A stretch of 64,000 bases of DNA from Candidatus Paceibacter sp. (GCA_020724885.1 DYGD01000003.1:3103-67102); one strand, 5' to 3'. Shown: positions 13,051 to 46,672, counted from the first letter of the stretch. Numbers and translations are program-made. Notes: generated from the sequence alone by a model not told the origin.

Positions 13051-13062
13051 AGTTTCATTCAC

Positions 13063-13099
13063 GGCAAGGGCTCCCCTAGTAAGAAGGGGAGCCCTTGCC
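13063..13099. terminator. bidirectional hairpin terminator (GGCAAGGGCTCCCC-tagtaagaa-GGGGAGCCCTTGCC)
   Basis: 14-bp perfect stem between convergent ruvB (+) and the island ORF (-). Confidence 0.65.
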
Positions 13100-13172
13100 A
13101 TATTCCGTTATAAAAAATAACCCTCCGTCTGCCGAAGCAAACAGAGGGTCAAGGGGTCCAAGTGCCAAAGTG

Positions 13173-13835
13173 TCAGCTTGCGGCAGACACAGTGGCAGAG
13201 GGCCCAAGAACAGAATTACTGCGAGAGAACACCATGAGGCCAGCGTCCCACCTGCCCGGGTACTCAACGGGGTCGGCGCGGACGAGCCAGCCGTCGCCAT
13301 CCCAGAAGACGTAGACCGCGCGAAGGACGCCATTCCGGTCGTGAGCGTAGAAGATGTTGGCACGGCCGTTGTTCAAGAGAACGCCGGCTTCGCCGTTCTT
13401 CTGTAGTGTCATGAGGTGGTAGATATGTCTGAGTGTCGTTCTTGGGTTCTCCTCCCCGCCGAGTTCGGCGATGATGGGTCCGTCCACCTCTTGTCTTGTG
13501 AGCTTGTAGTAGCAGAGAGTGGCATAGCTTTCCGGCTCTTCTGCCATCCCGCCGAAGTAGTTTCGGAAGTTGTATCCGATGAAAGAGATATTGACCGGAG
13601 CTTTTGGACTTGTGTCCACCTTGAAGTGGTCGTCCACGATGAACGGCTCCGTGCCGGCCGGCACATCCACAGTGCCGATGTGTTGGAGGAGTAGTGGCTT
13701 GGAAGCTTCGTTGATCTGAAACTCCACCGTTCCGTTGAGAACACCGATGACGGTTTTCGCGCCTCCAACCTTCTTGACGAAGGCGTTCAGTTGTCCGACG
13801 GTTAGACTGGCAGATGCGAATTCGGGTGAACTCAT
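13173..13835 (-). CDS. hypothetical protein (220 aa) encoded in a G+C-rich island; no recognisable domain
   Basis: Balanced amino-acid composition (MSSPEFASASLTVGQLNAFVKK...VYVFWDGDGWLVRADPVEYPGRWDAG...), GGAG RBS 7 nt before the ATG. The two other long ORFs over the same DNA are Arg-rich alternate frames. Confidence 0.55.
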   Translation of the reverse strand: MSSPEFASASLTVGQLNAFVKKVGGAKTVIGVLNGTVEFQINEASKPLLLQHIGTVDVPAGTEPFIVDDHFKVDTSPKAPVNISFIGYNFRNYFGGMAEEPESYATLCYYKLTRQEVDGPIIAELGGEENPRTTLRHIYHLMTLQKNGEAGVLLNNGRANIFYAHDRNGVLRAVYVFWDGDGWLVRADPVEYPGRWDAGLMVFSRSNSVLGPSATVSAAS

Positions 13836-13901
13836 CTTTACTCCTTGCCCTTGCTCGGGCGGTTTGATTTGCTCTAATCCGAGCTAGGAGCCATGCCAAC
13901 A

Positions 13902-13951
13902 TGGTCATAGCCAGAAAACCTCTATATTTCAAGGTCTTTTGGCTATGACCA
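13902..13951. promoter_or_regulatory. 12-bp perfect inverted repeat TGGTCATAGCCA-N26-TGGCTATGACCA upstream of the island ORF
   Basis: Arms 13902-13913 and 13940-13951; operator-like dyad about 70-115 bp upstream of the island ORF start. Confidence 0.4.
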
Positions 13952-14087
13952 TAGTATCCTTATCCGCAAGTATAACTTCAAAGAGCAAAACTGCTTCTAG
14001 TATACACTAAAGTAGTTTTTTGTCAATCTTACGAGTGAAAACTCTGATGATATACTACAAACTACCCCGAACTAAAGCACAGCTTAG

Positions 14088-14137
14088 TACGGGACAGGCT
14101 TACTATCCCGACACGCAAAGCGGTCGGGATCCCGTAC
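14088..14137 (+). promoter_or_regulatory. imperfect GC-rich hairpin in the yebC 5' region
   Basis: GTACGGGA...TATCCCGAC-acgcaaagcg-GTCGGGATCCCGTAC, about 40 nt upstream of the yebC TTG start. Confidence 0.35.
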
Positions 14138-14178
14138 CTCCGGCAAAGCCGAAGCGTCGGGACTAACTACAAACTAAC

Positions 14179-14706
14179 TTGGCTGGTCACAACAAATGGT
14201 CAAAAGTTAAGAGGAAAAAGGCGGTTACCGACGCTCAAAAGAGCAAGCTTTTCAGCAAGGCTGTAAAACTGATCAGCGCTGAAGCCAAAAAGTCCGGCGG
14301 AGTAGAGTCCGTCGGTCTAAAGTCGGCGATTGAAAAAGCCAAGGAGGCAAATGTTCCAAAAGATGTCATTGAAAGAGCGGTCAAAAAAGCCAAGGAAAGC
14401 GCGTCACAAGAAGCAATAACCTATGAGGCCTATGGTCCGGGCGGAGTAGCGATAATCATTGAAGCATTAACTGAAAACCGCAACAAAGCGGTGGCGGAAA
14501 TAAAACATATTTTGTCAAAACACGGTTTTGCCTTGGCCACTACAGGCAGTGCTGTTTGGGCTTTCAAGAAAGAGCCGGCTGGGAGCGATTGGCAACCGGC
14601 CAACACCCTTAAACTCTCTGCCGAAGACGAAGAAAAACTCGGCGCCCTAATTGATGACTTGGAAGAAAACGACGAGGTTCAAGAGGTTTTTACCAACGCA
14701 GAGTAA
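14179..14706 (+). CDS. yebC: YebC/PmpR family DNA-binding regulatory protein (short form)
   Basis: (M)AGHNKWSKVKRKKAVTDAQKSKLFSK... canonical YebC N-terminus; TTG start codon at 14179; 175 aa (shorter than the ~240-aa canonical form). Confidence 0.8.
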   Translation: MAGHNKWSKVKRKKAVTDAQKSKLFSKAVKLISAEAKKSGGVESVGLKSAIEKAKEANVPKDVIERAVKKAKESASQEAITYEAYGPGGVAIIIEALTENRNKAVAEIKHILSKHGFALATTGSAVWAFKKEPAGSDWQPANTLKLSAEDEEKLGALIDDLEENDEVQEVFTNAE

Positions 14707-14712
14707 AAAGCT

Positions 14713-15009: not shown

Positions 15010-17511
15010 TTAGTCAAGAAAAACAAAATCTGCCTCAACTTCAGCTCGATTGAACACCGAATCATAGACAACGGCCTTAAGAGTGTTTTCTCCCTCAAGC
15101 GCTCCAACTTCTACGGGAACAAAAGAGAATGTGAAATTTGGTCCGTTCTCCGAGTTCCCTAAATATCCTTCATTCAAGAAAAATTCGGTTTTAACCCTTG
15201 GATAAAAACCGCCCGTATTCAAACTAACATTGATTCTTTGATTTAAATCAAATCTTGAGCCGGAATTTGGGGTTGAAAAATTAGCAGTTGGAAACCTGGC
15301 GGGAATATGAACATCGTCATACTCTTTCGGCACATCATTTTCAGTTAATTCCTTTATACCCTGCCGCACCACCCACTCTCTGACAGAAAAATCCCAAAGA
15401 GAATATTGAGGGTCTCTTGCGGGGTTGGCCGGCCGTGGCCCTCTCGGCGCATCTTTATCAAGCCAGTGCAAAATTGTTCGGACTTCGCCAATTACAACTT
15501 CTTCCATGGTTTCTTTGGGAGTAAATTCGGTCGCCAACTTACCGGAAATCCTGTCAATGAAAAAGGACTCCCCGCCCTGCCAAATCCCCCTAAGAACGGG
15601 TTTCAGATCTTCCGTTTCGGTCGGCATATCAGGCAAAGGGTTGGAAAATCTTTCGTCCGGAAAAAGAGGCAGGACCTCATCCATAAATGCTCTCCAAAAA
15701 GGCGCGATTATAAAACCAGCGATCTGCTTTTCCATTGGCCTATTATCATTATTGCCTGCCCAAGCGCCAACCGCCAAGCCGGGTGTATAGCCGACAATCC
15801 AAGCATCGCGATAATCATTAGTGGTTCCTGTTTTGACCGCTACCTGCCGGGTCTGAAAATTCAAAGGAGAATTTTGGCCAAAAGCCGGGGCCCGGGCGGT
15901 GTTATCAGACAAAACGTCAGAAATTTTCCTAGCAATATTTTCTTGAAGCACGATTCTCGGCTCAACATTCGCCTTTTCCAAAATTTTGCCAGAGGAATCA
16001 GAAATTTCCAATACGCTGTTATAAGGGATTCTTACCCCATCATTGGCAAACACCCCATACGCGCTCACCAGATCAAGCAAGGACACCTCGCCACCACCCA
16101 AAACCAGTGTTAGTCCGTACTGATTGGCATCTTTCAAATTCTGAATTCCCATTGCTCGAGCCAAGCTCAAGGTCTGTTGCAAACCAGCAAGATAAAGAGT
16201 TTTAACCGAGGGAACATTAACCGACTGCGCCAGCGCTTCTCTCATTGTCATTGGCCCACGAAATACATTGTCATAGTTTTGTGGAGCATAACAATTTACA
16301 CCAACACCTTGGGGCGAACAGCCGGCGGTAAAAACGGTCGGCAAATCAAATAAAGAGGTCTCCGGGGTGTAGCCCTTGTTGAAGGCGGCGGCATAGGCAA
16401 ACGGCTTGAAAGCAGAGCCCGGCTGACGATAAGCGGTAGCAACATTAAAATTGCCGTCTATCTCCTCATCAAAATAATCACGAGAACCAACCATCGTCAG
16501 AATCTCACCCGTCTTTGGAGAAACTGCGACCAAAGATATGTTTTCTGCATTAAAATCAACCGTGTTGCGCAGAGCGAAGTTTTTTGCCAAATCTTCGGCT
16601 TTTTTTTGAATTTCATAATCAAGAGTGGTTATAACCTTGAGACCTCCAGTTTCCAAAACCTGCTGGCCGTATTTTTCCTCCAAGGTTTCTTTCACAAACA
16701 TAACAAAATGTGGGGCCTTTATTCCGGCATCCTCCCGCGACCTAAATTCAGTTTTCTCTTCCAAAGCCCGCTCGTATTCTTCTGTGTTAATAAAACCGTG
16801 ACGCAACATTTCTCTTAAAACCAGATTTTTTCTGTTTTCCAACCTTTCTCTGTTAGCCGGCTGGTAAGGAGAATAAAAAGACGGGGCCTGCGGTAGGGCC
16901 GCTAAATAAGCGGCCTCAACCAAAGTTACCTCGGATGCCTTTTTTCCGAAAAAAGCGCTGGAGGCCTCTTCAACTCCATACAAGTTTCCGCCATAAGGGC
17001 TTTCGTTTAAATATATCGCTAGGATCTCGTCTTTGGTTAAAACATTTTCAAGTTTTACCGCCAAAACCCATTCTTTGATTTTTCTGGAAATTCTTTTTTC
17101 TGTGGTCAAAAGAGAGTTTTTAATAACTTGTTGAGTAATTGTTGAACCGCCCTGCCTGAAACCCAGAGAACCAATGTTCACCAAAATAGCCCTAATAGTA
17201 GAGCGGATCTGGACACCGCCATGATTGTAAAAATCAGCATCTTCTATAGCCAAAGTCGCTTTCTTTATGTGCTCCGAAATTTCCTCAATCGGCACAATCG
17301 TCCTTTTAATATTTTGTGACAGGTCAAACAAAAGAGTTTCGCCAGTTCTATCATATATTTTAGTAGATTGGGCTAAAATTCTCTGATTAAAAGATTGCAG
17401 GTCTGGAATTTTAAAGGTTGAAATCCAAACAGCCAAAAAACCAGCCGCTAAAAAGCCGGCGATCAAAACGCATATTGCTAAAATTTTAATTTTTGATTTT
17501 AAACCTCTCAT
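15010..17511 (-). CDS. penicillin-binding protein 1A-type bifunctional transglycosylase/transpeptidase with C-terminal extension
   Basis: N-terminal TM anchor, GT51 motifs (EDADFYNHGGV, GGSTITQQVIKN, RKIKEWVLAVKLE), transpeptidase SAFKPF...SVN...KTGTTND; start set at internal ATG 17511. Confidence 0.85.
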   Translation of the reverse strand: MRGLKSKIKILAICVLIAGFLAAGFLAVWISTFKIPDLQSFNQRILAQSTKIYDRTGETLLFDLSQNIKRTIVPIEEISEHIKKATLAIEDADFYNHGGVQIRSTIRAILVNIGSLGFRQGGSTITQQVIKNSLLTTEKRISRKIKEWVLAVKLENVLTKDEILAIYLNESPYGGNLYGVEEASSAFFGKKASEVTLVEAAYLAALPQAPSFYSPYQPANRERLENRKNLVLREMLRHGFINTEEYERALEEKTEFRSREDAGIKAPHFVMFVKETLEEKYGQQVLETGGLKVITTLDYEIQKKAEDLAKNFALRNTVDFNAENISLVAVSPKTGEILTMVGSRDYFDEEIDGNFNVATAYRQPGSAFKPFAYAAAFNKGYTPETSLFDLPTVFTAGCSPQGVGVNCYAPQNYDNVFRGPMTMREALAQSVNVPSVKTLYLAGLQQTLSLARAMGIQNLKDANQYGLTLVLGGGEVSLLDLVSAYGVFANDGVRIPYNSVLEISDSSGKILEKANVEPRIVLQENIARKISDVLSDNTARAPAFGQNSPLNFQTRQVAVKTGTTNDYRDAWIVGYTPGLAVGAWAGNNDNRPMEKQIAGFIIAPFWRAFMDEVLPLFPDERFSNPLPDMPTETEDLKPVLRGIWQGGESFFIDRISGKLATEFTPKETMEEVVIGEVRTILHWLDKDAPRGPRPANPARDPQYSLWDFSVREWVVRQGIKELTENDVPKEYDDVHIPARFPTANFSTPNSGSRFDLNQRINVSLNTGGFYPRVKTEFFLNEGYLGNSENGPNFTFSFVPVEVGALEGENTLKAVVYDSVFNRAEVEADFVFLD

Positions 17512-17647
17512 GTGTTCAAAAAACCCACAAAAACAAATATTAGCACGAATCAACAAATATGATACATTTATAAGCGACGCCAAGCGAGAACGAAGGCCTG
17601 CCAGATAACTAATCTCGCCCATCAAATAAGCAACACAAAATTCTCAA

Positions 17648-19060
17648 ATGCTAAAAAACAAGAACAGACAAGAAGTTGATGATTTTTTCACACGAGGAGT
17701 TCGCGATGTAATTGACCCGGACGGGGCTTTCAAGCGCAAACTAGAAAGTGTGCTGGATGGTCAAAATAAGAGAGAAATCATCGTCAAGTGGGGGGTAGAC
17801 CCAACCAGTCCCGATATTCATATAGGACACGCTGTAGTTTTAAGAAAACTAAGACAACTTCAGGAGTTTGGTTGCAAGATCGTCTTCTTGGTGGGCGACT
17901 TCACCTCCCTTATCGGCGATCCAACTGGTAAAAACGTAACTCGTCCAGAAATTGAACAGAAGGTGGTCGAAGAAAATATGAACACCTATCTGAAGCAGAT
18001 AGAAAAGATTCTGAGAACAGAAAAGGAGGTTTTTTCGTGGATAAGAAATTCCGACTGGTTCACCTCGCCGACAGATTTAAACTTGCCGGAAACTTACAAA
18101 GTAAATTTAGAAGTAAATCAAAACAATCAAAAAATAAACGTTCCTATCGCTCCAAATTCTTTTGTCGGCAAGGCAATTGTGTTTGAAAAAACAAGAATGC
18201 AACTTTCGGAGAACACTAAAAACAAAGTGGCGGTTGTCACTTTAAAAAATTTCCTCTGGTTTCTAAAAAAATTAACTCATGCCCGCCTTATTGAACGAGA
18301 CATGTTTCAGGAAAGAATCAGATCGGGCAGAGAGCTGTATATGCATGAGCTGGCCTATCCAATTTTGCAAGGCATTGACTCCCACATAATATCGGAAATT
18401 TACGGGAGTTGCGATCTGGAAGTTGGTGGCAGCGATCAGACCTTCAATATGCTTTGCGGTCGGGAGATAATGAAAAACAACGGTCAGGAACCGCAAGCGG
18501 TTATCACCTTTGAACTCCTTGAGGGGACCGATGGTAAAGAAAAAATGAGCAAAAGTTTAAATAATTATATTGGCATCAACGAGCCGGCAGAAGAAATTTT
18601 TGGGAAAACCATGTCCATACCGGATACCCTTATCATCAAGTATTTCAATCTGTGCACCTACACCCCACGACAAGAGATTGAAGAAATTGAAGAAAAAATA
18701 AACTCTGGAAAGATCAACCCCAGAGATGCAAAAATGCGTTTGGCAAAGGAGATTGTTTCAATCTACCATGGCTCAAGCTCGGCAGAGGAGTCAGAAAAAA
18801 ACTTCTTAAAAGTTTTCCAAAAAAAAGAGGCGCCCGATAATCCGGAAGAGTTGGGGGCAGAAACTGATGAATTTTTATCTGAAATTTTAACTAAAAATAA
18901 ATTTGTAAAATCCAAATCTGATTTCCAACGACTTGCCCGGGCCGGAGCAATTGAAAATGTGGAAACCGGTGAAAAAATCACCGACCGGTTTTTCAAAATA
19001 AAAGAAAAAACTTATCTCAAAATAGGCAAAAAGAAATTTGTCAGAATAAACCCCAGATAA
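17648..19060 (+). CDS. tyrS: tyrosine--tRNA ligase
   Basis: Class I motifs: GVDPTSPDIHIGHAV (HIGH) and KMSKS; GDFTSLIGDPTGK TyrRS signature; C-terminal S4-like domain. Confidence 0.8.
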   Translation: MLKNKNRQEVDDFFTRGVRDVIDPDGAFKRKLESVLDGQNKREIIVKWGVDPTSPDIHIGHAVVLRKLRQLQEFGCKIVFLVGDFTSLIGDPTGKNVTRPEIEQKVVEENMNTYLKQIEKILRTEKEVFSWIRNSDWFTSPTDLNLPETYKVNLEVNQNNQKINVPIAPNSFVGKAIVFEKTRMQLSENTKNKVAVVTLKNFLWFLKKLTHARLIERDMFQERIRSGRELYMHELAYPILQGIDSHIISEIYGSCDLEVGGSDQTFNMLCGREIMKNNGQEPQAVITFELLEGTDGKEKMSKSLNNYIGINEPAEEIFGKTMSIPDTLIIKYFNLCTYTPRQEIEEIEEKINSGKINPRDAKMRLAKEIVSIYHGSSSAEESEKNFLKVFQKKEAPDNPEELGAETDEFLSEILTKNKFVKSKSDFQRLARAGAIENVETGEKITDRFFKIKEKTYLKIGKKKFVRINPR

Positions 19061-19117
19061 ATTCTCTTCTCGTTCTATTTTAGCTCGGAGGATGAGAAGG
19101 CGAGTATCGACAAAAAA

Positions 19118-19150
19118 CAAACACCCCGCTTCAGCGGGGTGTTTGTTTTT
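19118..19150. terminator. bidirectional hairpin terminator (AAACACCCCGCT-tcag-CGGGGTGTTT)
   Basis: Between convergent tyrS (+) and the small acidic ORF/ruvC (-); A-run and T-run on both sides. Confidence 0.7.
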
Positions 19151-19272
19151 TACATTTCTTCTTCGTCATCCTCCTCGTCTTCGTCGTCAGAATCATCTCC
19201 ATCATCGACCGTAGCAGAATCATCGGGGGTTTCCTCATCCGCGCTCATCAAATCATCATGGTCACTATCCAT
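19150..19272 (-). CDS. putative small highly acidic protein (40 aa; MDSDHDDLMSADEETPDDSATVDDGDDSDDEDEEDDEEEM)
   Basis: Short ORF between ruvC and the terminator; weak RBS. The track's 94-aa version starts inside ruvC and is less plausible. The opposite frame is a poly-Ser artefact. Confidence 0.25.
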   Translation of the reverse strand: MDSDHDDLMSADEETPDDSATVDDGDDSDDEDEEDDEEEM

Positions 19273-19396
19273 ATTCTTAGATTTCTTAAAAATTATAAGT
19301 TGGCGACCACCTCCACAGGTAGCTGGAGGTAAATCATTTTTACCAAATTTGGATTTTATTGTAAACAGCCCAAACCCCCAGTGTGGATAACAAAAA

Positions 19397-19900
19397 CTAG
19401 ACGGGTTGGTTTTTAAAATTTTTAAGATGGGCAAACGCGGTCAAGCCGACTGCGACAGCATCATATTCATCATCCTTCAATCCGTCCGGCTTTGTCATTT
19501 TAACAAGTTTTTTGACCATCACTTCAATCTGGCCCTTGTCGCTTCGGCCATATCCGGTAACGGCAACCTTTATCTGTAGAGGGGAATACTGGACCACACG
19601 AACACTCGCCTTCATGGCCTCGTATATCACCACCCCTCTAACTTCAGCAACCTGAAAAGCTGTCTTTTGGTTTTTATTGAAAAAAAGTTTTTCAATGGCC
19701 AAAAGATCTGGAGAAAATTTGCCAATTAACCTTTCAATCTCCCGACCAACCAATAGACACTTTTTTTCAAAGCTGTCGGACTTTTTGGCGGGGGGAGAGA
19801 AACAGTCGGAATACAGCAATTTTTCTCTGCCGTCTGGTTGTCGCTCCAAAACCGCCAAACCAAGGCGGTCATAACCAGGATCAACTGATAAAATCACCAT
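19397..19900 (-). CDS. ruvC: crossover junction endodeoxyribonuclease RuvC
   Basis: 167 aa; MVILSVDPGYDRLGLAVLE... with catalytic Asp in DPG and RNase H-like fold motifs. Confidence 0.85.
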   Translation of the reverse strand: MVILSVDPGYDRLGLAVLERQPDGREKLLYSDCFSPPAKKSDSFEKKCLLVGREIERLIGKFSPDLLAIEKLFFNKNQKTAFQVAEVRGVVIYEAMKASVRVVQYSPLQIKVAVTGYGRSDKGQIEVMVKKLVKMTKPDGLKDDEYDAVAVGLTAFAHLKNFKNQPV

Positions 19901-19907: not shown

Positions 19908-21008
19908 TTAACGGTTCATCGGCATCACTAAATAAAGAAAACTTTTGTCGCCGACACCCCTTATAACCATTGGTTTGGAAACATCATTTAATGACACAGA
20001 AACGCTGTCGGCGGTTAAAGAATTCAAGCAGTCAGAGACGTATTTCAAATTGAAACTGATATCTATGTCTTTACCGGAAAGAGCCGCGTCGATGCTGTAA
20101 ATATTTTCTCCTAGTTCGGTATTTTTTGTTTTCATTTCAAAAACCTTTTTTACCGGATAAATCACTAAATTTATTTGGTTGAATTTATCAGACATGACGT
20201 TAGCTAACTTTAGAGAAGAAGCCAAATCTTGCCTCAAAACAACTGCTTCTGTTTCAAACTCTTTTGGAATTATTTGCTTATAATCCGGAAAAGTGCTGTC
20301 AACAAGGCGCGAGGTTATGTAAGTCCCGCCGGAACTCAAGGATATTTGATTTTTATCAATAAAAACAGAAACATCTCCACCTTCTCCGTCAAGAATTCGG
20401 GTGATTTCCAAGGCGTTTTTATACGGCAGAAGAACGTTACCAAAATCCTTTGACTGCTTTAACTTGATTCTTTTTTCTGCCAACCTAAACGAATCTGTTG
20501 CGGCAAAGACCAAATCTTCCGAATCGCTATAAATAAAAACACTTGAAAGCTCTGGTTTGATTGATGACTGGGTTGAGCTGTACCAGACGGCCTTTAAGCC
20601 ATTTACAAAATCAGAAGCTGGCATATTAAACGGCTCGGATTTTGTTTCTGGAATACTTGGAAAATCATTTGGGTCTTTGGTTTTTATTGTCGCGAAATTT
20701 TTATTTGTCGTAAGTTTAACCTCGCCGTTAGACCCCTCAAATTTTATATTTTTGGTCTCCGGTAAGTTGCCAATCAAATTTATCAAAACCTCTCCCGGTA
20801 CTGCAACTACCCCGGGGGTTTCTGTTTTTACCGGGACCTCCAACCTGATTCCGATATCCAGGTTTGTCGCTTTTATAATCAATCGATTATTTTTATTTTC
20901 CAAAAGAAAACAACTTAGCACTGGCAACCCAGGATTTCTGTTGGTTGCGATTTTTCCGGCTTTAGTTATGGCGTCTAGTAATTTATCTTTTATACATTCA
21001 AATTTCAT
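19908..21008 (-). CDS. dnaN: DNA polymerase III beta sliding clamp
   Basis: 366 aa; MKFECIKDKLLDAITKAGKIATNRNPGLPVLSCFLLE typical DnaN N-terminus; three-domain length. Confidence 0.85.
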   Translation of the reverse strand: MKFECIKDKLLDAITKAGKIATNRNPGLPVLSCFLLENKNNRLIIKATNLDIGIRLEVPVKTETPGVVAVPGEVLINLIGNLPETKNIKFEGSNGEVKLTTNKNFATIKTKDPNDFPSIPETKSEPFNMPASDFVNGLKAVWYSSTQSSIKPELSSVFIYSDSEDLVFAATDSFRLAEKRIKLKQSKDFGNVLLPYKNALEITRILDGEGGDVSVFIDKNQISLSSGGTYITSRLVDSTFPDYKQIIPKEFETEAVVLRQDLASSLKLANVMSDKFNQINLVIYPVKKVFEMKTKNTELGENIYSIDAALSGKDIDISFNLKYVSDCLNSLTADSVSVSLNDVSKPMVIRGVGDKSFLYLVMPMNR

Positions 21009-21215
21009 TTATTTTTATTATTAGCTATGTTGATAAGTGGAAAAGTTTTAAAATGTTTCAAAATAAGGTTTTTTTGTTGTTTTTCGTGTGTATAAACACT
21101 GGAAAACTGGTGGCTTGTTTTTAATAAGGTGTTGAATTAATTTTTAAATTTACAAACGACATTTTTAATGAACATTTTTCCCAACTTTTCTCAACAGCTT
21201 TTCCAGGCCAGTTTT

Positions 21216-22565
21216 TTAATTTATCATTGTTCGCAGTTGGTCTATTTCTTTGCATAAATTGCTGTCGTGTCGCATCTCCGCTTTTATTTTTTCGCAGGAA
21301 TGGATCACGGTGGTGTGGTCCCTCCCCCCCATCTTTTCACCTATAGAGGGATACGAAATTCCGAAATCCTCTCTCAATAAAAACATCACTATTTGTCTCG
21401 GACGAATTACCTCTTTTTTTCTGGTTTTTTCATAGATTGTGTTTTCTTCCATATTATAGAAATCAGAGACAATTCTGGCGACCTCTTTGACCGACAGCGT
21501 CTTTTTCGGCTTGGAACTGTGTCTCAATAGATTTTTGACCTCTCCAAGAGTAAGCTCCTTGTTTTTTATTTGGTGGTGGCACGAAATAGCGTTGAGGGCA
21601 CCTTCAAGCTCTCGAACATTTGTGGTGATACTTGAAACTATAAAGTCAACGACTTCCTGAGCCAACTCTATTCCCAGATTTTTTGCCTTGGATCTAAGGA
21701 TGGCTGCCCTTGATTCGTGATCTGGGGTCGGGATATCGACTATCATTCCGGCGCTGAACCTAGATTTCAAACGGTCCTCCATATCGGGAATAAAGTTCGG
21801 GTGTTTGTCCGAAGAAAAAATTATTTGTTTATTGCTGTCGTGGATATTATTGAAAAGATGAAAAAGCTCTTCTTGGGTCTTTTCTTTGCTAGATAAAAAT
21901 TGTATGTCATCCATAATCAAAACATCGTATTTTCTGTATTTTTCTTTGAAATTATTTACCTTATTTGCTTGAACAGAACCGATATAATCCATAGCAAACT
22001 TTTCTGATGTCACATAGTGAACTCTTTTTTCCGGATAGGAGTTTTTTATTTGGTTTCCTATCGCTTGAATCAGATGAGTTTTGCCGACGCCGGTGTTGCC
22101 GTAAATGAATAGCGGGTTGTACACCAACCCCGGTTGTTTTACGACCGCCTGTGAGGCCGCGTACGCTAATTCGTTAAAGGGGCCAACCACAAGAGATTCA
22201 AATGTGTATTTTGGATTCAGGTTGTCGTCTTTGTTTATGTAGAGTTCCTCCAAAGGAAGCTCTCTGTTGGGGCTGGTCCTGACTTTGGTTGGCAACTCCT
22301 GTTTTTTCTTGGGGTCGGTTGGTGCGATCGTATACTCCAAAGATCTGATATCACTTGAAAGCCCCCTTAGGATTTTTAGAATGAAGCCGTGATGTTTTGA
22401 GGACAACCAATCCTTAACAAAGGCGTTTGGCACGCTTAAGAACACAGCCCCGCTGTCTTTTTTTAGTATGCGAGTGTCTTTAAACCAAGTGTTAAAATTC
22501 GCTGGAGAAGTGTTCATCTCTATTTCGGCCAAGGTGTTTTCCCATAGTTTTTTTGTGTCATCCAT
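21216..22565 (-). CDS. dnaA: chromosomal replication initiator protein DnaA
   Basis: AAA+ Walker A GNTGVGKTHLIQAIGN, Walker B DVLIMDDIQFL, C-terminal DnaA-box binding HTH (GRDHTTVIHSCEKI); start set to internal ATG 22565 (MDDTKKLWEN...). Confidence 0.9.
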   Translation of the reverse strand: MDDTKKLWENTLAEIEMNTSPANFNTWFKDTRILKKDSGAVFLSVPNAFVKDWLSSKHHGFILKILRGLSSDIRSLEYTIAPTDPKKKQELPTKVRTSPNRELPLEELYINKDDNLNPKYTFESLVVGPFNELAYAASQAVVKQPGLVYNPLFIYGNTGVGKTHLIQAIGNQIKNSYPEKRVHYVTSEKFAMDYIGSVQANKVNNFKEKYRKYDVLIMDDIQFLSSKEKTQEELFHLFNNIHDSNKQIIFSSDKHPNFIPDMEDRLKSRFSAGMIVDIPTPDHESRAAILRSKAKNLGIELAQEVVDFIVSSITTNVRELEGALNAISCHHQIKNKELTLGEVKNLLRHSSKPKKTLSVKEVARIVSDFYNMEENTIYEKTRKKEVIRPRQIVMFLLREDFGISYPSIGEKMGGRDHTTVIHSCEKIKAEMRHDSNLCKEIDQLRTMIN

Positions 22566-22917: not shown

Positions 22918-23265
22918 ATGCTACCCCGAGAATATCGGATCAGTAGGGCTCATTTTGCCGATATTTTTAAAAAAGGCCGTTTTTTCTCCGGCCAAAATTT
23001 AACTCTGGTTGTGCTGAAAAAACCGGAATCGGCTAAAAAGAGTAGCCGCTTTGCTTTTTCGGTGTCCAAAAAAGTCAGCAATAAGGCGGTGGTTAGGAAT
23101 AAGTTAAGGCGACGTGGTTATGAGGCCGTCGGAGAGCTGATTTCCCAAGTAAAATCTGGTTTTTTGGCAGTTTTTGTTTTAAAAAAGGGTGCCGAAAAAC
23201 TGAAATTTGAAGAATATAAAAAAGAAATAAAAGGACTTTTGATTAAATCGGGCTTGACAAAATAA
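22918..23265 (+). CDS. rnpA: ribonuclease P protein component
   Basis: 115 aa basic protein; MLPREYRISRAHFADIFKKG...FAFSVSKKVSNKAVVRNKLRRRGYEAV typical RnpA. Confidence 0.85.
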   Translation: MLPREYRISRAHFADIFKKGRFFSGQNLTLVVLKKPESAKKSSRFAFSVSKKVSNKAVVRNKLRRRGYEAVGELISQVKSGFLAVFVLKKGAEKLKFEEYKKEIKGLLIKSGLTK

Positions 23266-23357
23266 CAGAATTTGGTATCTTGTTAGCGGAAATGCACCCA
23301 GACGAAGGCGTGTTGCCTTTGTCGGACAGAACAAACGAACCCTGTCAGGAGATAGAA

Positions 23358-23762
23358 ATGCCAAGGTTTACCCTGAATTTTCGAGACGGAACCACCGGGG
23401 TAGTGGATGGGGAGACCATCAGTGATGCCTGCAGAATCTACAACCATCGGCCGGTTCATGTTCTCGCAGATCTTCAAAACTACACCACGGAAGATGGCCA
23501 AGAAGTTCCTGTGGCCGGAATCGCAGACTGTGGTTGCTTCTACCACGCGGAGCGGGGTGAAGCATGCCGCCACGATCTCGAAAAGGCCGGGATCATTACA
23601 GCCAGCGACAATGGCTGTGATACGGACGAGCATGACCGCCGTGATTTTGAGTGCGGTCCGCAACTTCTCGATCCGGCGCTTCGCGGTCTTGATGCTAGCA
23701 AAGTGCCGGCGGAGAGGCCGGAGGAATGCTTTCCGGGCGATGCCCAACGCAGGAATGCGTAA
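23358..23762 (+). CDS. hypothetical acidic Cys-containing protein (135 aa) in a G+C-rich island between rnpA and yidC
   Basis: AGGAGA RBS 6 nt upstream of ATG 23358; followed by a Rho-independent terminator; MPRFTLNFRDGTTGVVDGETISDACRIYNHRPVHVLADLQNYTTEDGQEV...; the competing minus-strand ORF 23283-23825 is Arg-rich at its N-terminus (alternate-frame artefact). Confidence 0.45.
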   Translation: MPRFTLNFRDGTTGVVDGETISDACRIYNHRPVHVLADLQNYTTEDGQEVPVAGIADCGCFYHAERGEACRHDLEKAGIITASDNGCDTDEHDRRDFECGPQLLDPALRGLDASKVPAERPEECFPGDAQRRNA

Positions 23763-23787
23763 GTGTCGATCTGAGCAGGTTCCTAAA

Positions 23788-23839
23788 CCGTACGCGACAC
23801 GCAAACGAAAGTTTGCTCCGCGCACGGTTTTTTCTTTTT
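23788..23839 (+). terminator. Rho-independent terminator after the island-b ORF
   Basis: CCGTACGCG...CGCGCACGG stem followed by TTTTTTCTTTTT. Confidence 0.6.
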
Positions 23840-23890
23840 ATTGCAATTCGTCAATCCCAAAAGATTGACTTAAATTTCACTTGCTATAAT

Positions 23891-23924
23891 TCCACTAATT
23901 TTCCCGATCGGGAAAATTAGTGGA
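23891..23924. promoter_or_regulatory. perfect 34-bp palindrome TCCACTAATTTTCCCGA|TCGGGAAAATTAGTGGA abutting a TATAAT -10 element upstream of yidC
   Basis: 17-bp perfect arms centred on CGATCG, starting 1 nt after TATAAT (23885-23890); TTGACT at 23865-23870. Confidence 0.5.
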
Positions 23925-24024
23925 ATTAGAGTGTAACGAATCGCTTAGAATTTTATCAACATTCAGATTAGGAACAAGTCGATATAAAATTGTAATTTTA
24001 AGGCAAATGATTTAAAATAGCCGA

Positions 24025-24738
24025 ATGTCTTGGCTTTATCATACTCTCATTTATCAACCACTCTACAACGGGTTGGTTTTTTTGATGGATATTGGGGCTG
24101 ATGCCGGTATTGCGGTGGTGGTTTTGACCCTCGCCGTTCGTTTTATTCTGTTCCCTTTATCTAAGAAAGCGGTTACCACTCAACAAAAAATCAGAGAATT
24201 CCAGCCGGAAATAGACCGCGTAAAGGAACAATATAAAAAAGACCGACAAGAACAAGCCAAGAAAATAATGGAGTTTTACAAGGAAAAAGGCATCAATCCT
24301 TTTTCAAGTTTTTTTCTGGTTTTAATTCAGTTGCCGATAATTTTCGGTCTCTATCGCATTTTCTGGGCTTCTGGCTTGCCGGAAATTCAACAACAAATTC
24401 TTTATTCATTTGTTCCAGTTCCCGCTTCGGTTGATATGATATTTTTGGGATTGGTTGATATTGCCTTAAAGAGCTGGCCGTTAGCTATTTTGGTGGGCAT
24501 TACCACCTTTTTCCAAATGAAGCTCTCAATGCCTGCTCTGAAGAATACCAAACCGGTCGGTCAATCTTTCAAAGATGATTTGGCGCGCAGTATGAACCTG
24601 CAGATGCGATACTTTTTTCCGGTCATTTCCATTTTTTTGTCCTACACCCTTTCGGGTGCTATCGCTCTCTACTGGTTGACTAGCAATCTCTTTACCATCG
24701 GACAAGAAATGTTTTTGAAGAGAAATAATAAAAAGTAG
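24025..24738 (+). CDS. yidC: membrane protein insertase YidC (short Oxa1-like form)
   Basis: 237 aa, five TM segments; canonical placement after rnpA. Confidence 0.85.
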   Translation: MSWLYHTLIYQPLYNGLVFLMDIGADAGIAVVVLTLAVRFILFPLSKKAVTTQQKIREFQPEIDRVKEQYKKDRQEQAKKIMEFYKEKGINPFSSFFLVLIQLPIIFGLYRIFWASGLPEIQQQILYSFVPVPASVDMIFLGLVDIALKSWPLAILVGITTFFQMKLSMPALKNTKPVGQSFKDDLARSMNLQMRYFFPVISIFLSYTLSGAIALYWLTSNLFTIGQEMFLKRNNKK

Positions 24739-28745: not shown

Positions 28746-28820
28746 TGCCCTAATTTTAGCATATTTAGACGCGGGCGCGGGTGAAGCTGTGAATTTTTTG
28801 CTCCTGGAACTGTTTGGAAT

Positions 28821-29267
28821 TCAAACCGGCTTAGCGACTTTGCCGATAGCAAGCAATTCCTCTCTTTTTTCAAAAAAAATAGTGAAAAATACGGAGGCGG
28901 TGATAGCCGGAAGTGGCGTCCAGGAAAACAGAAAACCCAAACCCATTGATGCTAGTTTTTTAGGTGTTAACATCCGAACTCCTTTTAATGAAAACCAGAA
29001 AAAGAAAATGCCATACGCCAAAACGCTGATGGCTAATCCGATTATTTGTCCAGCGATCGGTATAATGTTTATTAAGGCAATCAGGAGATCAAAAAAAATG
29101 GCGGTCCCGTACATTAAATACTTGGTTCCTTGGCTCAATTTCTCACCATTTCCACCGCTAGCCCTGGCTTTATTGGGCGAGGTATTAGGAGGCTCCTTTT
29201 TTTCTTGCCGTGGCCTAATATGATGCGCCTCTGTTTTTTGTTGCGCGGACTTTTGTTGTTCATCCAT
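28821..29267 (-). CDS. small polytopic membrane protein (148 aa)
   Basis: Three hydrophobic helices after a charged N-terminus; sits between the VirB4-like ATPase and the secreted protein. Confidence 0.45.
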   Translation of the reverse strand: MDEQQKSAQQKTEAHHIRPRQEKKEPPNTSPNKARASGGNGEKLSQGTKYLMYGTAIFFDLLIALINIIPIAGQIIGLAISVLAYGIFFFWFSLKGVRMLTPKKLASMGLGFLFSWTPLPAITASVFFTIFFEKREELLAIGKVAKPV

Positions 29268-29295
29268 TTTTATATTTTGTTATTTAGCCATTTGG

Positions 29296-31125: not shown

Positions 31126-31126
31126 A

Positions 31127-39902: not shown

Positions 39903-39903
39903 T

Positions 39904-44643: not shown

Positions 44644-44739
44644 GTTTAGTTTATAAGTTTCGCTTTGCTCCTAAGTTGGTAAGTTAAGAAACTTACAGCG
44701 AGCGAAGCGAGCGGAACTTACCAACTTTTAAATTACCAA

Positions 44740-45108
44740 CTACTCCATATGCTTCTTGCATGTCGCCGCGGCCGGATTGGCTTCCAAGCGGTCGCTTTCA
44801 ATCGGTTCGCCGGACACTTCGCAAAAACCATAACTGCCGCCTTCAATTTTTTGCAGAGCTTTTTTGACGTTATTGAAGCGGATTTCCAACTCATTCAAAA
44901 TACCGGCGTTTTCGCCGTAGGCCTCATAAGCGTCGGCTGTCTCGTTTGGGTCGGCAGCAACGTCTAATTTTTCTGGTTTAGCTTCCCAATCGTCCGGATT
45001 GTCGGGGTTGATTCGCCCGACGGTTTTCAACTCCTCAATCAGAAGGGTTTTTTCTTCCTCCAGTTTTTTTCGAAAATATTCAAAATCTATGTCGTTTCTT
45101 TTTTGCAT
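44740..45108 (-). CDS. DksA/TraR-family C4 zinc-finger protein
   Basis: Start at ATG 45108 (MQKRNDIDFEYFRKKLEEEK...); C-terminal CEVSGEPIESDRLEANPAAATCKKH zinc-finger pattern. Confidence 0.65.
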   Translation of the reverse strand: MQKRNDIDFEYFRKKLEEEKTLLIEELKTVGRINPDNPDDWEAKPEKLDVAADPNETADAYEAYGENAGILNELEIRFNNVKKALQKIEGGSYGFCEVSGEPIESDRLEANPAAATCKKHME

Positions 45109-45166
45109 TTGATTAATTTTACTTTTTATTGGCAGACATAGCAAGAGAGCATAAAATTTATGGACT

Positions 45167-45574
45167 TTAATTGAAGAGTAATAAGCCGTTTTTGCGATAA
45201 TGAGTGTCAAAACTAACTATTGCTTGAAAATTTCCCAAACGAAACAAGGCGATATTGGCAGCATCAACAAAACTAACATTTTTAGATCGCTGTGAACGAA
45301 AAATTTTTTTACTTTCCTCAAACAACCTTTCCGACGGATGAATGATGGTAATTTCTGCTCTTTCTGTATCGTTCATAAAGTGCCTAGCTACAGACTGGCT
45401 AACTCTCATAGACAAAACCGTTGTTATTTCGCCATAGACAAAAACTGAAAGAGCCAAATCCAGACCGCGCTCTTGGATTTTTTCAAGAACGGCCAAAGCT
45501 CGCTTATGGTTGCTGTCGTCCTTTTTATAAAGAGCGATGAAAAAATCGGCGTCAGCCAGCAATCTATTTTCCAT
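45167..45574 (-). CDS. vapC: PIN-domain toxin (VapC-like)
   Basis: MENRLLADADFFIALYKKDD...VSFVDAANIAL...SFDTHY: conserved PIN Asp residues; overlaps the upstream antitoxin by 11 nt. Confidence 0.6.
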   Translation of the reverse strand: MENRLLADADFFIALYKKDDSNHKRALAVLEKIQERGLDLALSVFVYGEITTVLSMRVSQSVARHFMNDTERAEITIIHPSERLFEESKKIFRSQRSKNVSFVDAANIALFRLGNFQAIVSFDTHYRKNGLLLFN

Positions 45575-45818
45575 AAAGATAAAAATCGTGCCTTTTAGAA
45601 AGGTCTTTTGGACCGCCTTTCCCGGCATGCTTTCGGGCGTTTTTTAACAATAAACTCGCATTAAAGTTTTTCTTTGGTTGGTAAAACTCCTTATGCTTCC
45701 AGGCGCGCAACATATCGCGAAAAAATTCGCTTTTGGTGCCGTATCGCCCTTGTTTGATTTCCTGTTCAATCTCTTGATAGAGATGGTCAGGCATAGAAAT
45801 GTTAACAACTTTTCTCAT
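45564..45818 (-). CDS. ribbon-helix-helix (CopG/ParD-like) antitoxin
   Basis: KVVNISMPDHLYQEIEQEIKQGRYGTKSEFFRDMLRAW RHH signature; directly upstream of and overlapping the PIN gene. Confidence 0.55.
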   Translation of the reverse strand: MRKVVNISMPDHLYQEIEQEIKQGRYGTKSEFFRDMLRAWKHKEFYQPKKNFNASLLLKNARKHAGKGGPKDLSKRHDFYLYGK

Positions 45819-45934
45819 ATAAAGGTATTGTAGTGTTTTGTATTACAGAAGTCAATCATCACTTGTGGACTTCCGAAGTCCGAAAGCAGGTGATTTACAT
45901 GAGTGACATTCGTAGTGTCGTAACCCCGCCCCAG

Positions 45935-46006
45935 TTTTGTAAGCAAAACTGGGGCGGGACGTTAAACAATGAAAAAGACCGCGACGGTGGAACCGCGCGG
46001 TCTTGC
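45935..46006 (-). terminator. tandem hairpins; the proximal one plus T-run terminates the island pilin gene
   Basis: CCCGCCCCAGTTTTG-taagc-AAAACTGGGGCGGG (45935-45968) and AAGACCGCG-acggtggaac-CGCGCGGTCTT (45975-46006), followed on the minus strand by TTTTTCATTGTTT. Confidence 0.55.
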
Positions 46007-46027
46007 AAGGAGCGTTCCAGGGGATCT

Positions 46028-46462
46028 TCACTCGTCGCCGGATTCGGATTCAGCGACGAGTGTCCGAAGGCGCTGAAGATGATTGTCCAGCGCTCGCACC
46101 CATTCCTCGCTCGGCAACTCGCCGTCGCCTCGGGGAATTATTTCCCACTGGTGCCCTCTGCTCTGAACGGGTAGGATTACCCTTACCGCCAAAGTTCGGG
46201 GGTTGAGATGAAAGACCTCCACCTCATCTCCACTGAACTGGAAGAAGAAGTAGATCGGGCGATCGGGGAGAGCCGTGTTCCGGAGCAGATCTCCGGTCTG
46301 AATCTCGGCCCACTGCTCGCCGTGCTCCTCCACGATCTTCTGCCTGACCTCATCCGGAGTGGGGGCAGGATCCTTGAACATTGTCGTGGCAAGCAAGCCG
46401 AGGATTGTCACGATCAGGACAAGAACCACCAATTCGGGCAGGGTGAATCCGCGCTTCATCAC
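46028..46462 (-). CDS. type IV pilin / pseudopilin with class III (prepilin) signal peptide, encoded in a G+C-rich island
   Basis: MMKRG|FTLPELVVLVLIVTILGLLATT: textbook prepilin-peptidase site with Glu+5 and hydrophobic helix; 144 aa; local G+C visibly far above flanks. Confidence 0.65.
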   Translation of the reverse strand: MMKRGFTLPELVVLVLIVTILGLLATTMFKDPAPTPDEVRQKIVEEHGEQWAEIQTGDLLRNTALPDRPIYFFFQFSGDEVEVFHLNPRTLAVRVILPVQSRGHQWEIIPRGDGELPSEEWVRALDNHLQRLRTLVAESESGDE

Positions 46463-46672
46463 CTATCTCCTTGCTTTGGGTGTGGCAACAAGCCAAAACC
46501 CAGTTTGCGTCCGGTTGAAATACTAGCAAATTTAGTCTAAAAAGTCAAGCTGGTTTGGTAATGTGCACACACTTTTAAGGATAGCTGTTTTCAGCCCCCC
46601 TTTTTAGCGACACGTGTCGGCAAAAGGGGAGAGAAAAAAAGGGGGTGTGAAAATTTATGGTAAAGAATCGGA

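Follow-up and report, generated by a model that had tools for sequence, protein, structure and literature searches.

Variable proteins of diversity-generating retroelements (DGRs) that adopt a C-type lectin fold have been described from a Bordetella phage (Mtd), from Treponema denticola (TvpA), from Archaea (AvpA) and from Thermus (TaqVP), and these are the closest described counterparts of one of the genes presented here. Its family is also close to the CPR set of DGRs (Paul et al. 2017; Wu et al. 2018, PMC5758913; clade 2 in Roux et al. 2021, PMC8144416). In Wu et al. (2018, PMC5758913), a GC deviation of at least 5 % is taken as a sign of recent transfer, and targets located remotely, more than 100 kb away, are reported only for Lineage 4 and its neighbours, not for the CPR set. 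The window, i.e., the whole 64-kb stretch of DNA analysed, contains three GC-rich islands. We consider it probable (about 0.75) that these are transcription units of one gene each, unrelated to one another and each with a history of its own, and that their high G+C is an unreliable sign of a high-GC donor.

Composition and junctions of the three islands

The window has a GC of 0.426 (standard deviation between 200-nt windows 0.058). Segments with at least 0.53 GC were longest at 13061-13920 (0.557), 23361-23860 (0.550) and 45861-46520 (0.561). Against a background of 53 genes (GC 0.418 ± 0.039, GC3 0.423 ± 0.056), the genes of islands 1, 2 and 3 had a GC of 0.567 (z 3.8), 0.568 (z 3.9) and 0.582 (z 4.2) and a GC3 of 0.69 (z 4.8), 0.56 (z 2.5) and 0.70 (z 5.1). 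They were the three worst-fitting genes in synonymous codon usage (z -6.2, -3.2 and -7.4, respectively), and islands 1 and 3 were the top outliers in tetranucleotides; GC3 was even along the island genes. Windowed GC and the z-scores for codon usage and tetranucleotides thus bear out the GC-rich blocks in AT-rich surroundings reported in the preliminary description, and each block is, as described there, a single gene that has its own ribosome-binding site (a Shine-Dalgarno sequence) and terminator; each also has a promoter-like site (Table 1). The neighbours are RuvB and YebC for island 1, RnpA and YidC for island 2 and a PIN/RHH (VapBC) pair for island 3. Two more GC-rich patches without ORF, absent from the preliminary description, are located at 3045-3385 and 57140-57600; both are strongly structured (fold z -5.4 and -4.9).

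The gap between ruvB and yebC is 1128 nt in the window versus a median of 65 nt in 16 relatives. RnpA and yidC are 760 nt apart in the window; across 55 relatives this distance has a median of 54 nt and never exceeds 313 nt. None of these relatives had a homolog of island 1 or 2. An insertion, as proposed for all three blocks, is therefore supported by the junction comparison for islands 1 and 2, but not for island 3, which is present in a syntenic relative (see below). Direct or terminal inverted repeats and target-site duplications were not found at the flanks of any island, nor a tRNA near the islands or an integrase or recombinase in the neighbouring ORFs. In three relatives the ruvB-yebC junction carries other, unrelated single-gene inserts in antisense orientation.

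Table 1 Features of the three islands, in positions of the window
Feature	Position	Strand	Remarks
Second hairpin	13063..13099		perfect, 15 bp; 13 nt after ruvB stop; outside DGR-target-homologous block
Island 1 transcription unit	about 13108-14026	-	
Island 1 family-specific hairpin and T-run	13108..13151	-	GACCCTCTGTTTGC-TTCG-GCAGACGGAGGGT; hairpin itself 13118-13151
Island 1 ORF	13173..13835	-	220 aa; AAGGAG Shine-Dalgarno 5 nt upstream; DGR-type variable protein, predicted fold C-type-lectin-like
Island 1 VR-homologous segment	13218..13328	-	aa 170-206 (VLRAVYVFWDGDGWLVRADPVEYPGRWDAGLMVFSRS)
Island 1 leader hairpin, predicted 5' UTR	13901..13952	-	21-nt arms, 10-nt loop
Island 1 promoter, sigma-70-like	13999..14026	-	TTGACA-16-TATACT, 11/12 matches
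Island 2 promoter-like site	23254..23281	+	TTGACA-16-TATCTT, TG extension; overlaps end of rnpA
Island 2 ORF	23358..23762	+	134 aa; AGGAG Shine-Dalgarno
Island 2 compound hairpin, terminator-like	23788..23839	+	followed by TTTTTTCTTTTT
Palindrome	23884..23931		perfect, 48 nt; covers -10 box of yidC promoter
Island 3 terminator region	45925..45997	-	hairpin 45980-45997 and T-run; second, perfect 15-bp hairpin 45925-45958
Island 3 ORF	46028..46459	-	143 aa from ATG; 144 aa from GTG at 46462; AAGGAG Shine-Dalgarno
Island 3 promoter-like site	46520..46548	-	TTGACT-17-TAGTAT, with TG

The island 1 gene and its DGR family

The island 1 ORF is unannotated in public gene calls, which instead show an ORF of 103 aa on the plus strand and one of 214 aa in a wrong frame here; the frame read in the window was checked and is the one conserved in the family. 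The protein is 45-60 % identical to 31 proteins. The family was sampled in 80 GTDB loci, all from uncultured MAGs and most labelled Patescibacteria-type; a few carry the labels Gammaproteobacteria, Bdellovibrionales or Spirochaetia, and cultured high-GC organisms were absent (0/80). Homologous loci possess a 114-nt VR, a TR differing from it at template adenines and an adjacent RT gene, located just downstream of the TR. Nineteen of 22 differences in the VR/TR pair of locus L005 and 21 of 31 in that of L006 were at TR adenines, and the repeat pairs of the homologs were adenine-specific when tested. Such differences are the footprint of cDNA-mediated VR rewriting. The VR segment of the window matched the TR of L005 with 75.7 % identity over 111 nt and was mismatched at 19 of 27 template adenines, but only at 11 of 87 other bases; foreign TRs aligned to it with 72-76 % identity over 111 nt, and the best of them kept 9-11 non-adenine differences. 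At the 3' side, the VR/TR homology has an IMH-like boundary, TCTCG(C/A)AA. The target-TR-RT block is shared with 78-94 % nucleotide identity between loci with unrelated flanks. The protein had been described as lacking a recognisable domain, which is true for Pfam and NCBIfam, but its predicted fold is C-type-lectin-like, as expected of DGR proteins that present variable residues, and a DGR variable region is discernible. Judged from these alignments, island 1 is a DGR target gene encoding a variable protein, with codons 170-206 as its variable region.

A hairpin with a T-run 15-60 nt after the stop codon was present in 56 of 79 family loci versus 5 of 1580 control segments, and pairs 7-13 of its stem covary. 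The copy in the window is the terminator of the island 1 gene and possibly also a DGR target-site hairpin. The preliminary description had wrongly placed the terminator at the second hairpin behind ruvB, which is probably the end of ruvB's own transcript; DNA homology of island 1 to the family cassettes stops at about 13108. Only two Taylorbacteria loci, L050 and L020, the latter with two copies, share the leader hairpin with the window; changes in its inner stem are compensatory. The promoter-like site lies outside the GC-rich part.

No RT, Avd or TR was found within the 64-kb window. A tblastn search of the window with family RT and Avd sequences yielded nothing (best E 0.27-0.37), and Pfam detected no RVT domain among 20 ORFs of the window, which include most of the long ones. 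Island 1 would thus be a target-only copy that was inserted between ruvB and yebC. Two fates of such a copy have to be weighed. We lean, with little more than even confidence, to a VR that a DGR located beyond the 64 kb rewrites in trans. Alternatively, the target has lost its TR and RT and now evolves as an ordinary static gene, a serious contender which we rate somewhat below even odds. The lack of TR, RT and Avd in 64 kb fits such a stranded copy, as does the VR, which is the same in all five consensus sequences (the window, a JGI contig and three Logan contigs). A 3-nt insertion at the 3' edge of the window VR, directly behind the conserved TCTCGC, also points to decay, and decay does occur in the family: in the L006 cassette a transposase fragment occupies the place expected for the RT. 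However, island 1 retains an intact ORF and Shine-Dalgarno sequence, its leader hairpin and family hairpin-terminator are intact too, and remote copies are the norm, with no RT within 6 kb in 48 of 80 family loci. In all three other genomes that allow a comparison, RT-less paralogs match the TR of their own genome with adenine-specific mismatches (14/17, 16/17 and 23/29), which argues for rewriting in trans.

The high GC of island 1 is shared by its family. Target genes had a GC of 0.553 and a GC3 of 0.69, versus 0.424 for the rest of the locus, and the target was higher in 80 of 80 loci. The RT of the cassette had a GC of 0.402, below that of the target in 32 of 32 loci; RT GC follows host GC (slope 0.72, r 0.83), target GC only weakly (slope 0.32). 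Because the target is GC-rich in 80 of 80 loci while the RT of the cassette is AT-rich, the high GC is, as far as base composition tells, to be seen as a family trait and not as the signature of a donor. In all AT-rich hosts the target family stays rich in GC3 and C3, while the co-travelling RT gene drifts to the host composition, so some gene-specific selection or mutational bias would maintain the GC. That a retroelement-linked process actively keeps the Patescibacteria DGR target genes of this family at high GC3/C3 is a speculative and rather unlikely extension. Candidate processes would be selection that favours a GC-rich target able to pair stably in cDNA homing, selection that spares a co-transcript of target and TR from off-target adenine mutagenesis, or a biased repair following recurrent cDNA-mediated conversion. 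If true, a solitary GC3-rich gene in an AT-rich genome would be a compositional fingerprint of hypermutation targets, and could expose remote or orphan targets missed by RT-centred searches, as with the mis-called island 1 gene.

Islands 2 and 3 and the origin of the blocks

The ORF of island 2 is a real single gene of 134 aa, not of 135 aa as reported. Its terminator-like hairpin was not called by a simple scan because of the long loop. Pfam and NCBIfam agree with the reported lack of a recognisable domain for this protein too. Its residues 1-80, however, make up a small Cys/His domain, DAC...VAG..CGCxYHAExGxxCxHDL..G, that is conserved in 32 remote homologs, mostly of 77-106 aa. Only one homolog (P0046, residues 2-133) also aligns over the whole C-terminal extension. 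The product is probably a small, metal-binding Cys/His-rich protein. The closest homolog (51 % identity, gene GC 0.62) belongs to a 51 %-GC genome with Patescibacteria-like gene content (L180); in another locus, L181, the GC of the homolog is host-like. Island 2 was inserted between rnpA and yidC in the lineage of the window only, and since the closest homolog resides in this GC-richer genome with Patescibacteria-like genes, a GC-richer relative is a plausible source.

Island 3 had been described as a prepilin-type pilin. The leader motif MKRG/FTLPE is visible and followed by a transmembrane helix of about 20 hydrophobic residues, but the prepilin profile TIGR02532 reached only 14.0 bits, under the cut-off of 16.3, Pfam gave no hit, and the pilin-type leader is absent from the ortholog. 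Past the membrane helix, the predicted structure is an SH3-like barrel of five strands, preceded by one helix and followed by a C-terminal one; the predicted head is thus the SH3-like barrel and not the alpha/beta-roll head domain of pilins. In the relative L002, island 3 occupies the same syntenic position, the flanking PNPase, ComM and DksA are 77-78 % identical, and GC3 is 0.67-0.70 in both diverged orthologs. At a flanking-protein identity of 77 %, synonymous sites are saturated. Since position and GC3 are the same in L002 at this divergence of the flanking proteins, island 3 is neither recent nor an insertion. It is an old resident gene whose small product is membrane-anchored and has a predicted SH3-like domain; the insertion at this place is the neighbouring VapBC pair.

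Recent import of all three blocks from a high-GC donor or host, with a composition not yet drifted to that of the recipient, would account for the strongly atypical composition and codon usage, for the lack of islands 1 and 2 at the same junctions in 16-55 related loci and for the GC-rich closest homolog of island 2. Against this reading stand the family-wide high GC of island 1 with an AT-rich RT in the same cassette that tracks host GC, the restriction of the 80 family loci to uncultured MAGs, and the lack of mobility genes, target-site duplications and terminal repeats around all islands. For island 3, recent import is refuted by the synteny with L002. The step from foreign composition to a recent high-GC donor, taken in the preliminary description, hence fails for islands 1 and 3; we regard a common import as very unlikely, and such a donor explains at most one of the three islands.

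An imposition of the high G+C by a second function in the same DNA, a structured RNA or an overlapping frame, had also been considered; it is very unlikely as well and, if anything, slightly less probable. The sense strand of island 2 folds with a z of -3.3 (0/100 shuffles as good) versus -1.5 for the antisense strand and -1.6 for a control gene, long alternative-frame ORFs are present in islands 1 and 2, and the two ORF-less GC-rich patches of the window are strongly structured. But islands 1 and 3 fold no better than the control gene (z -1.7 and -1.9), Rfam matches were not obtained, the alternative-frame translations are arginine-rich and unlike protein, and along the genes GC3 is uniform. 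Because C-rich third positions strip stops from the other two sense frames, long alternative ORFs are to be expected as a by-product. What stands of the proposal is a weak indication for RNA in island 2 only.

Assembly or binning chimeras attached to an AT-rich genome, suggested by several Logan contigs that stop 154 nt after island 2, have a negligible probability: ruvB-island 1-yebC is 100 % identical in one JGI and two Logan assemblies, a third Logan contig covers this stretch up to 14183, just inside the start of yebC, three Logan runs give an identical sequence for the rnpA-island 2 junction, and the island 3 junctions are mirrored in the unrelated sample L002. The four contigs (three runs) all end at 23916, inside the perfect 48-nt palindrome. 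Perfect palindromes are a known breakpoint of de Bruijn graphs, and the shared contig end is an assembler effect, not strain heterogeneity. The chimerism which the preliminary description wished to have excluded is thereby excluded for the tested junctions.

Comparison with known systems

With the CPR set of DGRs, as described in the reports named above, the island 1 family shares single small targets without recognisable domains, the restriction to Patescibacteria and the order target, TR, RT; unlike that set, it could not be matched to the VR classes UVR1-6 named there. A target systematically far GC-richer than its own RT is not mentioned in the searched text of Wu et al. (2018, PMC5758913) and Roux et al. 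(2021, PMC8144416). Applied to the island 1 family, the inference of recent transfer from GC deviation would mislead. Remote DGR targets of the Treponema and Legionella type (Wu et al. 2018, PMC5758913) resemble island 1 as targets without an adjacent RT; like these, the RT-less copies in three other genomes of the family match the single TR in trans. Unlike in the known remote-target systems, no partner TR for island 1 was found within the 64-kb window. Island 3 shares MKRG/FTLPE and about 20 hydrophobic residues with type IV pilins and pseudopilins (TIGR02532 / PF07963). PilB- and PilT-like ATPases and pilin-like genes are also encoded in the window. Classical genomic islets are resembled by islands 1 and 2 in the atypical GC and codon usage and in being missing from the junctions of relatives. 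Unlike such islets, the islands are without integrase, tRNA attachment site, direct or terminal inverted repeats, island 3 is no insertion, and the composition of island 1 belongs to a gene family and not to a donor genome.

Composition, assembly and junctions of the three islands

The G+C content of the window is 42.6 %, and its longest stretches with at least 53 % G+C in 200-nt windows were located at 13061-13920 (island 1), 23361-23860 (island 2) and 45861-46520 (island 3), each with 55-56 % G+C. Measured against 53 background genes, the island genes deviated by z = 3.8-4.2 in GC and, for islands 1 to 3 in turn, by z = 4.8, 2.5 and 5.1 in GC3. Their synonymous codon usage gave the three worst fits in the window (z -6.2, -3.2 and -7.4), and the top tetranucleotide outliers were islands 1 and 3. 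Pfam identified RuvB and YebC as neighbours of island 1, RnpA and YidC of island 2 and a PIN/RHH pair beside island 3. Thus, the G+C-rich blocks noted in the preliminary description do differ from their surroundings. The observation is real, while the explanation that was to unify it, a recent import of all three from a high-GC donor, is largely wrong. The window shows cleanly how three GC islands can look alike and yet each have a different origin.

Assembly chimerism, initially considered, was dismissed for the tested junctions by comparison with independent JGI and Logan assemblies. The metagenomes belonging to this MAG are JGI 3300029893, SRR5011273, SRR5011275, SRR6488413 and SRR6488455. 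From ruvB through island 1 to yebC, one JGI assembly and two Logan assemblies agreed with the window at 100 % identity; a further Logan contig covers this stretch as far as 14183, within the first bases of yebC. For the junction of rnpA and island 2, three Logan runs gave the identical sequence. The region is represented by four Logan contigs (three runs), each of which stops at 23916 inside a perfect palindrome (Table). This contig end is certainly an assembler breakpoint, not heterogeneity; the palindrome is possibly an operator.

A common gene order, pilB-ruvB-yebC...dnaN-dnaA-rpmH-rnpA-yidC-jag, was seen in 80 metagenome loci around DnaA (55-81 % identity). Between ruvB and yebC the window has 1128 nt, the median of 16 relatives being 65 nt; between rnpA and yidC it has 760 nt, whereas 55 relatives have a median of 54 nt and do not exceed 313 nt. 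In the closest relative (DnaA 81 %), the latter gap has 287 nt of ordinary composition. Homologs of island 1 or island 2 were not encoded in the DnaA-centred loci of the relatives. The inserts are absent from both junctions there; islands 1 and 2 are insertions in the lineage of the window. In three relatives the space between ruvB and yebC is taken by other single genes, which are antisense, unrelated and in no case GC-rich. The junction therefore tolerates insertions and seems to be a recurrent landing site; island 1 is likewise antisense. Direct or terminal inverted repeats marking transposition were not found flanking any island.

No stretch in this part of the window is as AT-rich as the spacer between dnaA and dnaN (21009-21215; GC 0.29 at 21001-21300), which is likely the replication origin. 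If so, replication runs in the direction of islands 1 and 2 and head-on to ruvB and yebC; a 2026 study reported that co-directional orientation favours the homing of diversity-generating retroelements (PMC12875486). The PBP-trpS-ruvC segment (15010-19900) is inverted with respect to most relatives (L099-L170), the order of the window being that of loci L092 and L118.

Table. Features located in the window and in related metagenome loci (L-numbers)
Feature	Coordinates	Strand	Remark
GC-rich patch (0.54), ORF-less	3045-3385	minus	MFE -148 vs -117 kcal/mol, z -5.4 vs shuffles
Inverted repeat, 49 nt, imperfect	2896-2944 and 3528-3576		brackets the patch 3045-3385
Post-stop hairpin and T-run	13118-13151	minus	window copy of the family element
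Island 1 ORF, 220 aa	13173-13835	minus	31 homologs, 45-60 % identity
Island 1 VR-homologous segment	13218-13328	minus	encodes residues 170-206; aligns to the TR of L005
Leader hairpin, ~52 nt	13901-13952	minus	downstream of the promoter-like site
Promoter-like site TTGACA-16-TATACT	13999-14026	minus	sequence match
Perfect 48-nt palindrome	23884-23931		overlies -10 box of yidC promoter
VapBC (PIN and RHH) pair	45167-45818		absent from otherwise syntenic L002
GC-rich region, ORF-less	57140-57600	plus	between clpP and rny-like gene; z -4.9 plus, -3.8 minus
ruvB-yebC insert, 250 aa	L167 18385-19137		antisense to ruvB, yebC; no Pfam domain
ruvB-yebC insert, 158 aa	L142 9982-10458		antisense to ruvB, yebC; no Pfam domain
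ruvB-yebC insert, 95 aa	L103 19196-19483		antisense to ruvB, yebC; no Pfam domain
Three tandem island 2 paralogs (77, 58, 97 aa)	L180 2377-3418		97-aa copy GC3 0.82

Islands 2 and 3 and further elements of the window

Islands 2 and 3 are ordinary small genes with different histories and without an assigned function; significant matches in Pfam or NCBIfam were obtained for none of the three island proteins. A word-indexed protein search with the island 2 protein returned only itself. An exhaustive HMMER search revealed 32 remote homologs, mostly of 77-106 aa, that align to residues 1-80 at 32-53 % identity. The family shares the motif DAC...VAG..CGCxYHAExGxxCxHDL..G with (near-)invariant C58, C60, C70, H72 and D73, and a Pfam domain is absent from every member. 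Homologs and motif establish the sense ORF as a real gene, with its length corrected to 134 aa (23358-23762). An antisense ORF of 180 aa, lacking a Shine-Dalgarno sequence, was rejected in its favour. The protein consists of a small Cys/His-rich domain, which probably binds metal, and a C-terminal extension. The closest homolog (51 % identity, gene GC 0.62) is accompanied by two tandem paralogs in a 51 %-GC genome of Patescibacteria-like gene content; another homolog, in a 42 %-GC genome, has a host-like composition. An import from a moderately GC-richer relative is plausible for island 2, which is all that survives of the donor hypothesis. The mRNA of island 2 folds somewhat better than shuffled sequences (z -3.3; antisense strand -1.5, control gene -1.6), a result that is no more than suggestive.

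For the island 3 protein a single homolog with 45 % identity was found. Its contig, L002, presents the order pnp, a 318-aa gene, the homolog, dksA, comM ... uvrD, ksgA as in the window but without the VapBC pair, and the flanking proteins are 54-78 % identical (PNPase 77 %, ComM 78 %). GC3 of the homolog is 0.67 versus 0.35-0.41 in its surroundings, in the window 0.70 versus 0.42-0.48. The same position and the high GC3 in a diverged relative make island 3 an old resident with a maintained GC3 rather than a recent insertion; the insertion is the VapBC pair, missing in the syntenic contig. The assignment as a prepilin-type pilin is weak: the leader motif MKRG|FTLPE speaks for it, but the score for TIGR02532 (14.0 bits) is under the cut-off of 16.3, and the ortholog has a plain transmembrane anchor without the leader. 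A search of PHROGs with the island proteins gave only matches to the leader region of island 3.

A secondary RNA function tied to the high G+C content had been suggested. The folding of islands 1 and 3 is no stronger than that of a control gene. Rfam at gathering thresholds detected only tRNAs in the whole window, and at E up to 1 on 2900-3800, 23200-24050 and 57100-57800 its matches were only of chance level. Two ORF-less patches, at 3045-3385 and 57140-57600, look like structured RNAs. The first could represent a structured RNA that is either undescribed or very divergent; the second has a TATAAT-like box at its 5' edge and no Rfam match. A very AT-rich ORF within a tRNA gene cluster (62240-62647; GC 0.277, GC3 0.21) lies in a compositional island of the opposite kind (tetranucleotide z of the region ~3.3). 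Upstream of tRNA-Pro by 95 nt, a 51-nt segment (60704-60754) matches the 5' part of that gene (60799-60849) with 90 % identity; it may be a tRNA fragment, perhaps an integration scar. At 26890-31194, a T4SS-pilin-domain protein and a TraG/VirB4-like P-loop ATPase adjoin a conserved 517-aa peptidoglycan-binding protein, which looks like a type IV secretion-like cluster within a housekeeping region.

Island 1 and a family of retroelement target genes

The island 1 protein had 31 homologs with 45-60 % identity, none with a Pfam domain, and a profile search against PDB sequences gave no match. One homolog is located directly upstream of a 334-aa RVT_1 gene, another adjoins a faint match to bAvd. 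In both loci, L005 and L006, a 114-nt repeat at the 3' end of the gene recurs in direct orientation 478-499 nt further downstream. The two differ almost solely at adenines of the downstream copy, which lie mostly in AAC codons (19/22 differences in L005, 21/31 in L006). Such an adenine-specific pair is the defining footprint of a diversity-generating retroelement (DGR), which copies a template repeat (TR) into a variable repeat (VR) under adenine mutagenesis. The alignment of the 31 sequences displayed hypervariable columns between invariant W, G, A, V and F residues, corresponding to residues 170-206 in the window. The DNA encoding them aligned to the L005 TR with 75.7 % identity over 111 nt (E 1e-17) and differed at 19 of 27 TR adenines and 11 of 87 other bases; one form of it with N at adenine-derived positions is CTTCGCGCGGTCNNCGTCNNCTGGNNNGNCGACGGCTGGNNCGTCNNNGCCNACCCCGTTGAGNACCCGNNCAGGTGGNACGNTGGCNNCNNGGTGTTCTCTCG. 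Judged from these alignments, island 1 is a previously unannotated Patescibacteria DGR target gene, of a kind already known.

Public gene calls lack the island 1 ORF, hence the missing self-match in the protein search; they contain instead a 103-aa plus-strand ORF and a 214-aa ORF in the wrong frame. C-rich third positions strip stop codons from the other two sense frames, thus creating the long alternative ORFs that misled the gene callers. The gene mis-called by annotation pipelines in this genome is one for a hypervariable protein, alone between two housekeeping genes.

Family members carry a hairpin 15-60 nt past the stop codon with the consensus TTGACCCTCGGTCTGC-TTCG-GCGGATTGGGGGTCAATTTTTT. 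Together with a T-run it was present in 56 of 79 family loci versus 5 of 1580 control segments, and stem pairs 7-13, which were not fixed by the search pattern, covary. In the window this hairpin is the island's own terminator; the one at 13063-13099, initially assigned to it, is a separate element, and DNA homology to the family cassettes stops at ~13108. The leader hairpin is common only to two Taylorbacteria loci besides the window, with compensatory changes in the inner stem. The post-stop hairpin and the leader hairpin both belong to the island 1 unit.

Neither a TR nor genes for a reverse transcriptase (RT) or the accessory protein Avd were found within the 64-kb window, thus island 1 is a target-only copy. 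Its VR recurs unchanged in one JGI contig and in three Logan contigs. Among 80 family loci in GTDB species representatives, 48 had no RT within 6 kb. Three genomes hold RT-linked and RT-less copies, and the RT-less VRs match the TR of their own genome (adenine-specific differences 14/17, 16/17 and 23/29). On account of these matches, we slightly favour a DGR encoded beyond the 64 kb, with island 1 as its remote target; that the copy is stranded is a serious rival reading. According to Roux et al. 2021 (PMC8144416), remote targets escape metagenome surveys that begin with the RT. In this family, RT-less copies are the majority. A phage reservoir of the island 1 and island 2 families was unsupported, with two weak matches and none, respectively, on viral contigs.

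Base composition of DGR target genes

For the survey of composition, different Patescibacteria-type MAGs contributed 80 loci. In these, the target gene had a mean GC of 0.553 and a GC3 of 0.69 versus a GC of 0.424 in the rest of the locus, and was higher in 80/80. The adjacent RT gene, with a mean GC of 0.402, was slightly below the host and below the target in all 32 loci with both genes. RT composition followed host GC (slope 0.72, r 0.83), target composition only weakly (slope 0.32). Target, TR and RT form a block of 2.3-2.7 kb with 78-94 % nucleotide identity between loci with unrelated flanks. They travel as one block, so that the mobile cassette is itself a compositional mosaic, the target lying ~16 GC points above the RT (32/32 loci), and the target composition is uninformative about the donor genome. 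The high G+C content of island 1 is a trait of its family.

Along the target gene GC3 is uniform, which ruled out an effect of the VR only. C3 is doubled (0.40-0.48) and A3 and T3 are both depleted; avoidance of adenine alone was rejected, T3 being depleted equally with A3. Translational selection was rejected as well, since genes of ribosomal proteins, nusG and secE beside a family member have a GC3 of 0.23-0.36. In 0.9 Mb of dnaA-centred loci of relatives, a scan for further GC3-rich genes yielded only spurious antisense ORFs and the ortholog of island 3. 

A GC deviation of at least 5 % was taken as evidence of recent transfer in a passage of Wu et al. (PMC5758913). Atypical composition, the standard flag of recent horizontal transfer, misleads for the island 1 family. 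In the DGR surveys read, no mention of an asymmetry of GC between target and RT was found, and none of the papers searched contained 'diversity-generating retroelement' together with 'GC3'. A surprising by-product of this analysis is the lasting GC3 gap that separates target from RT genes of one and the same DGR cassette, together with the similar persistence of a high GC3 in island 3. The gap points to a gene-specific force acting on DGR targets, which is open to test in the reconstituted DGR systems now existing.
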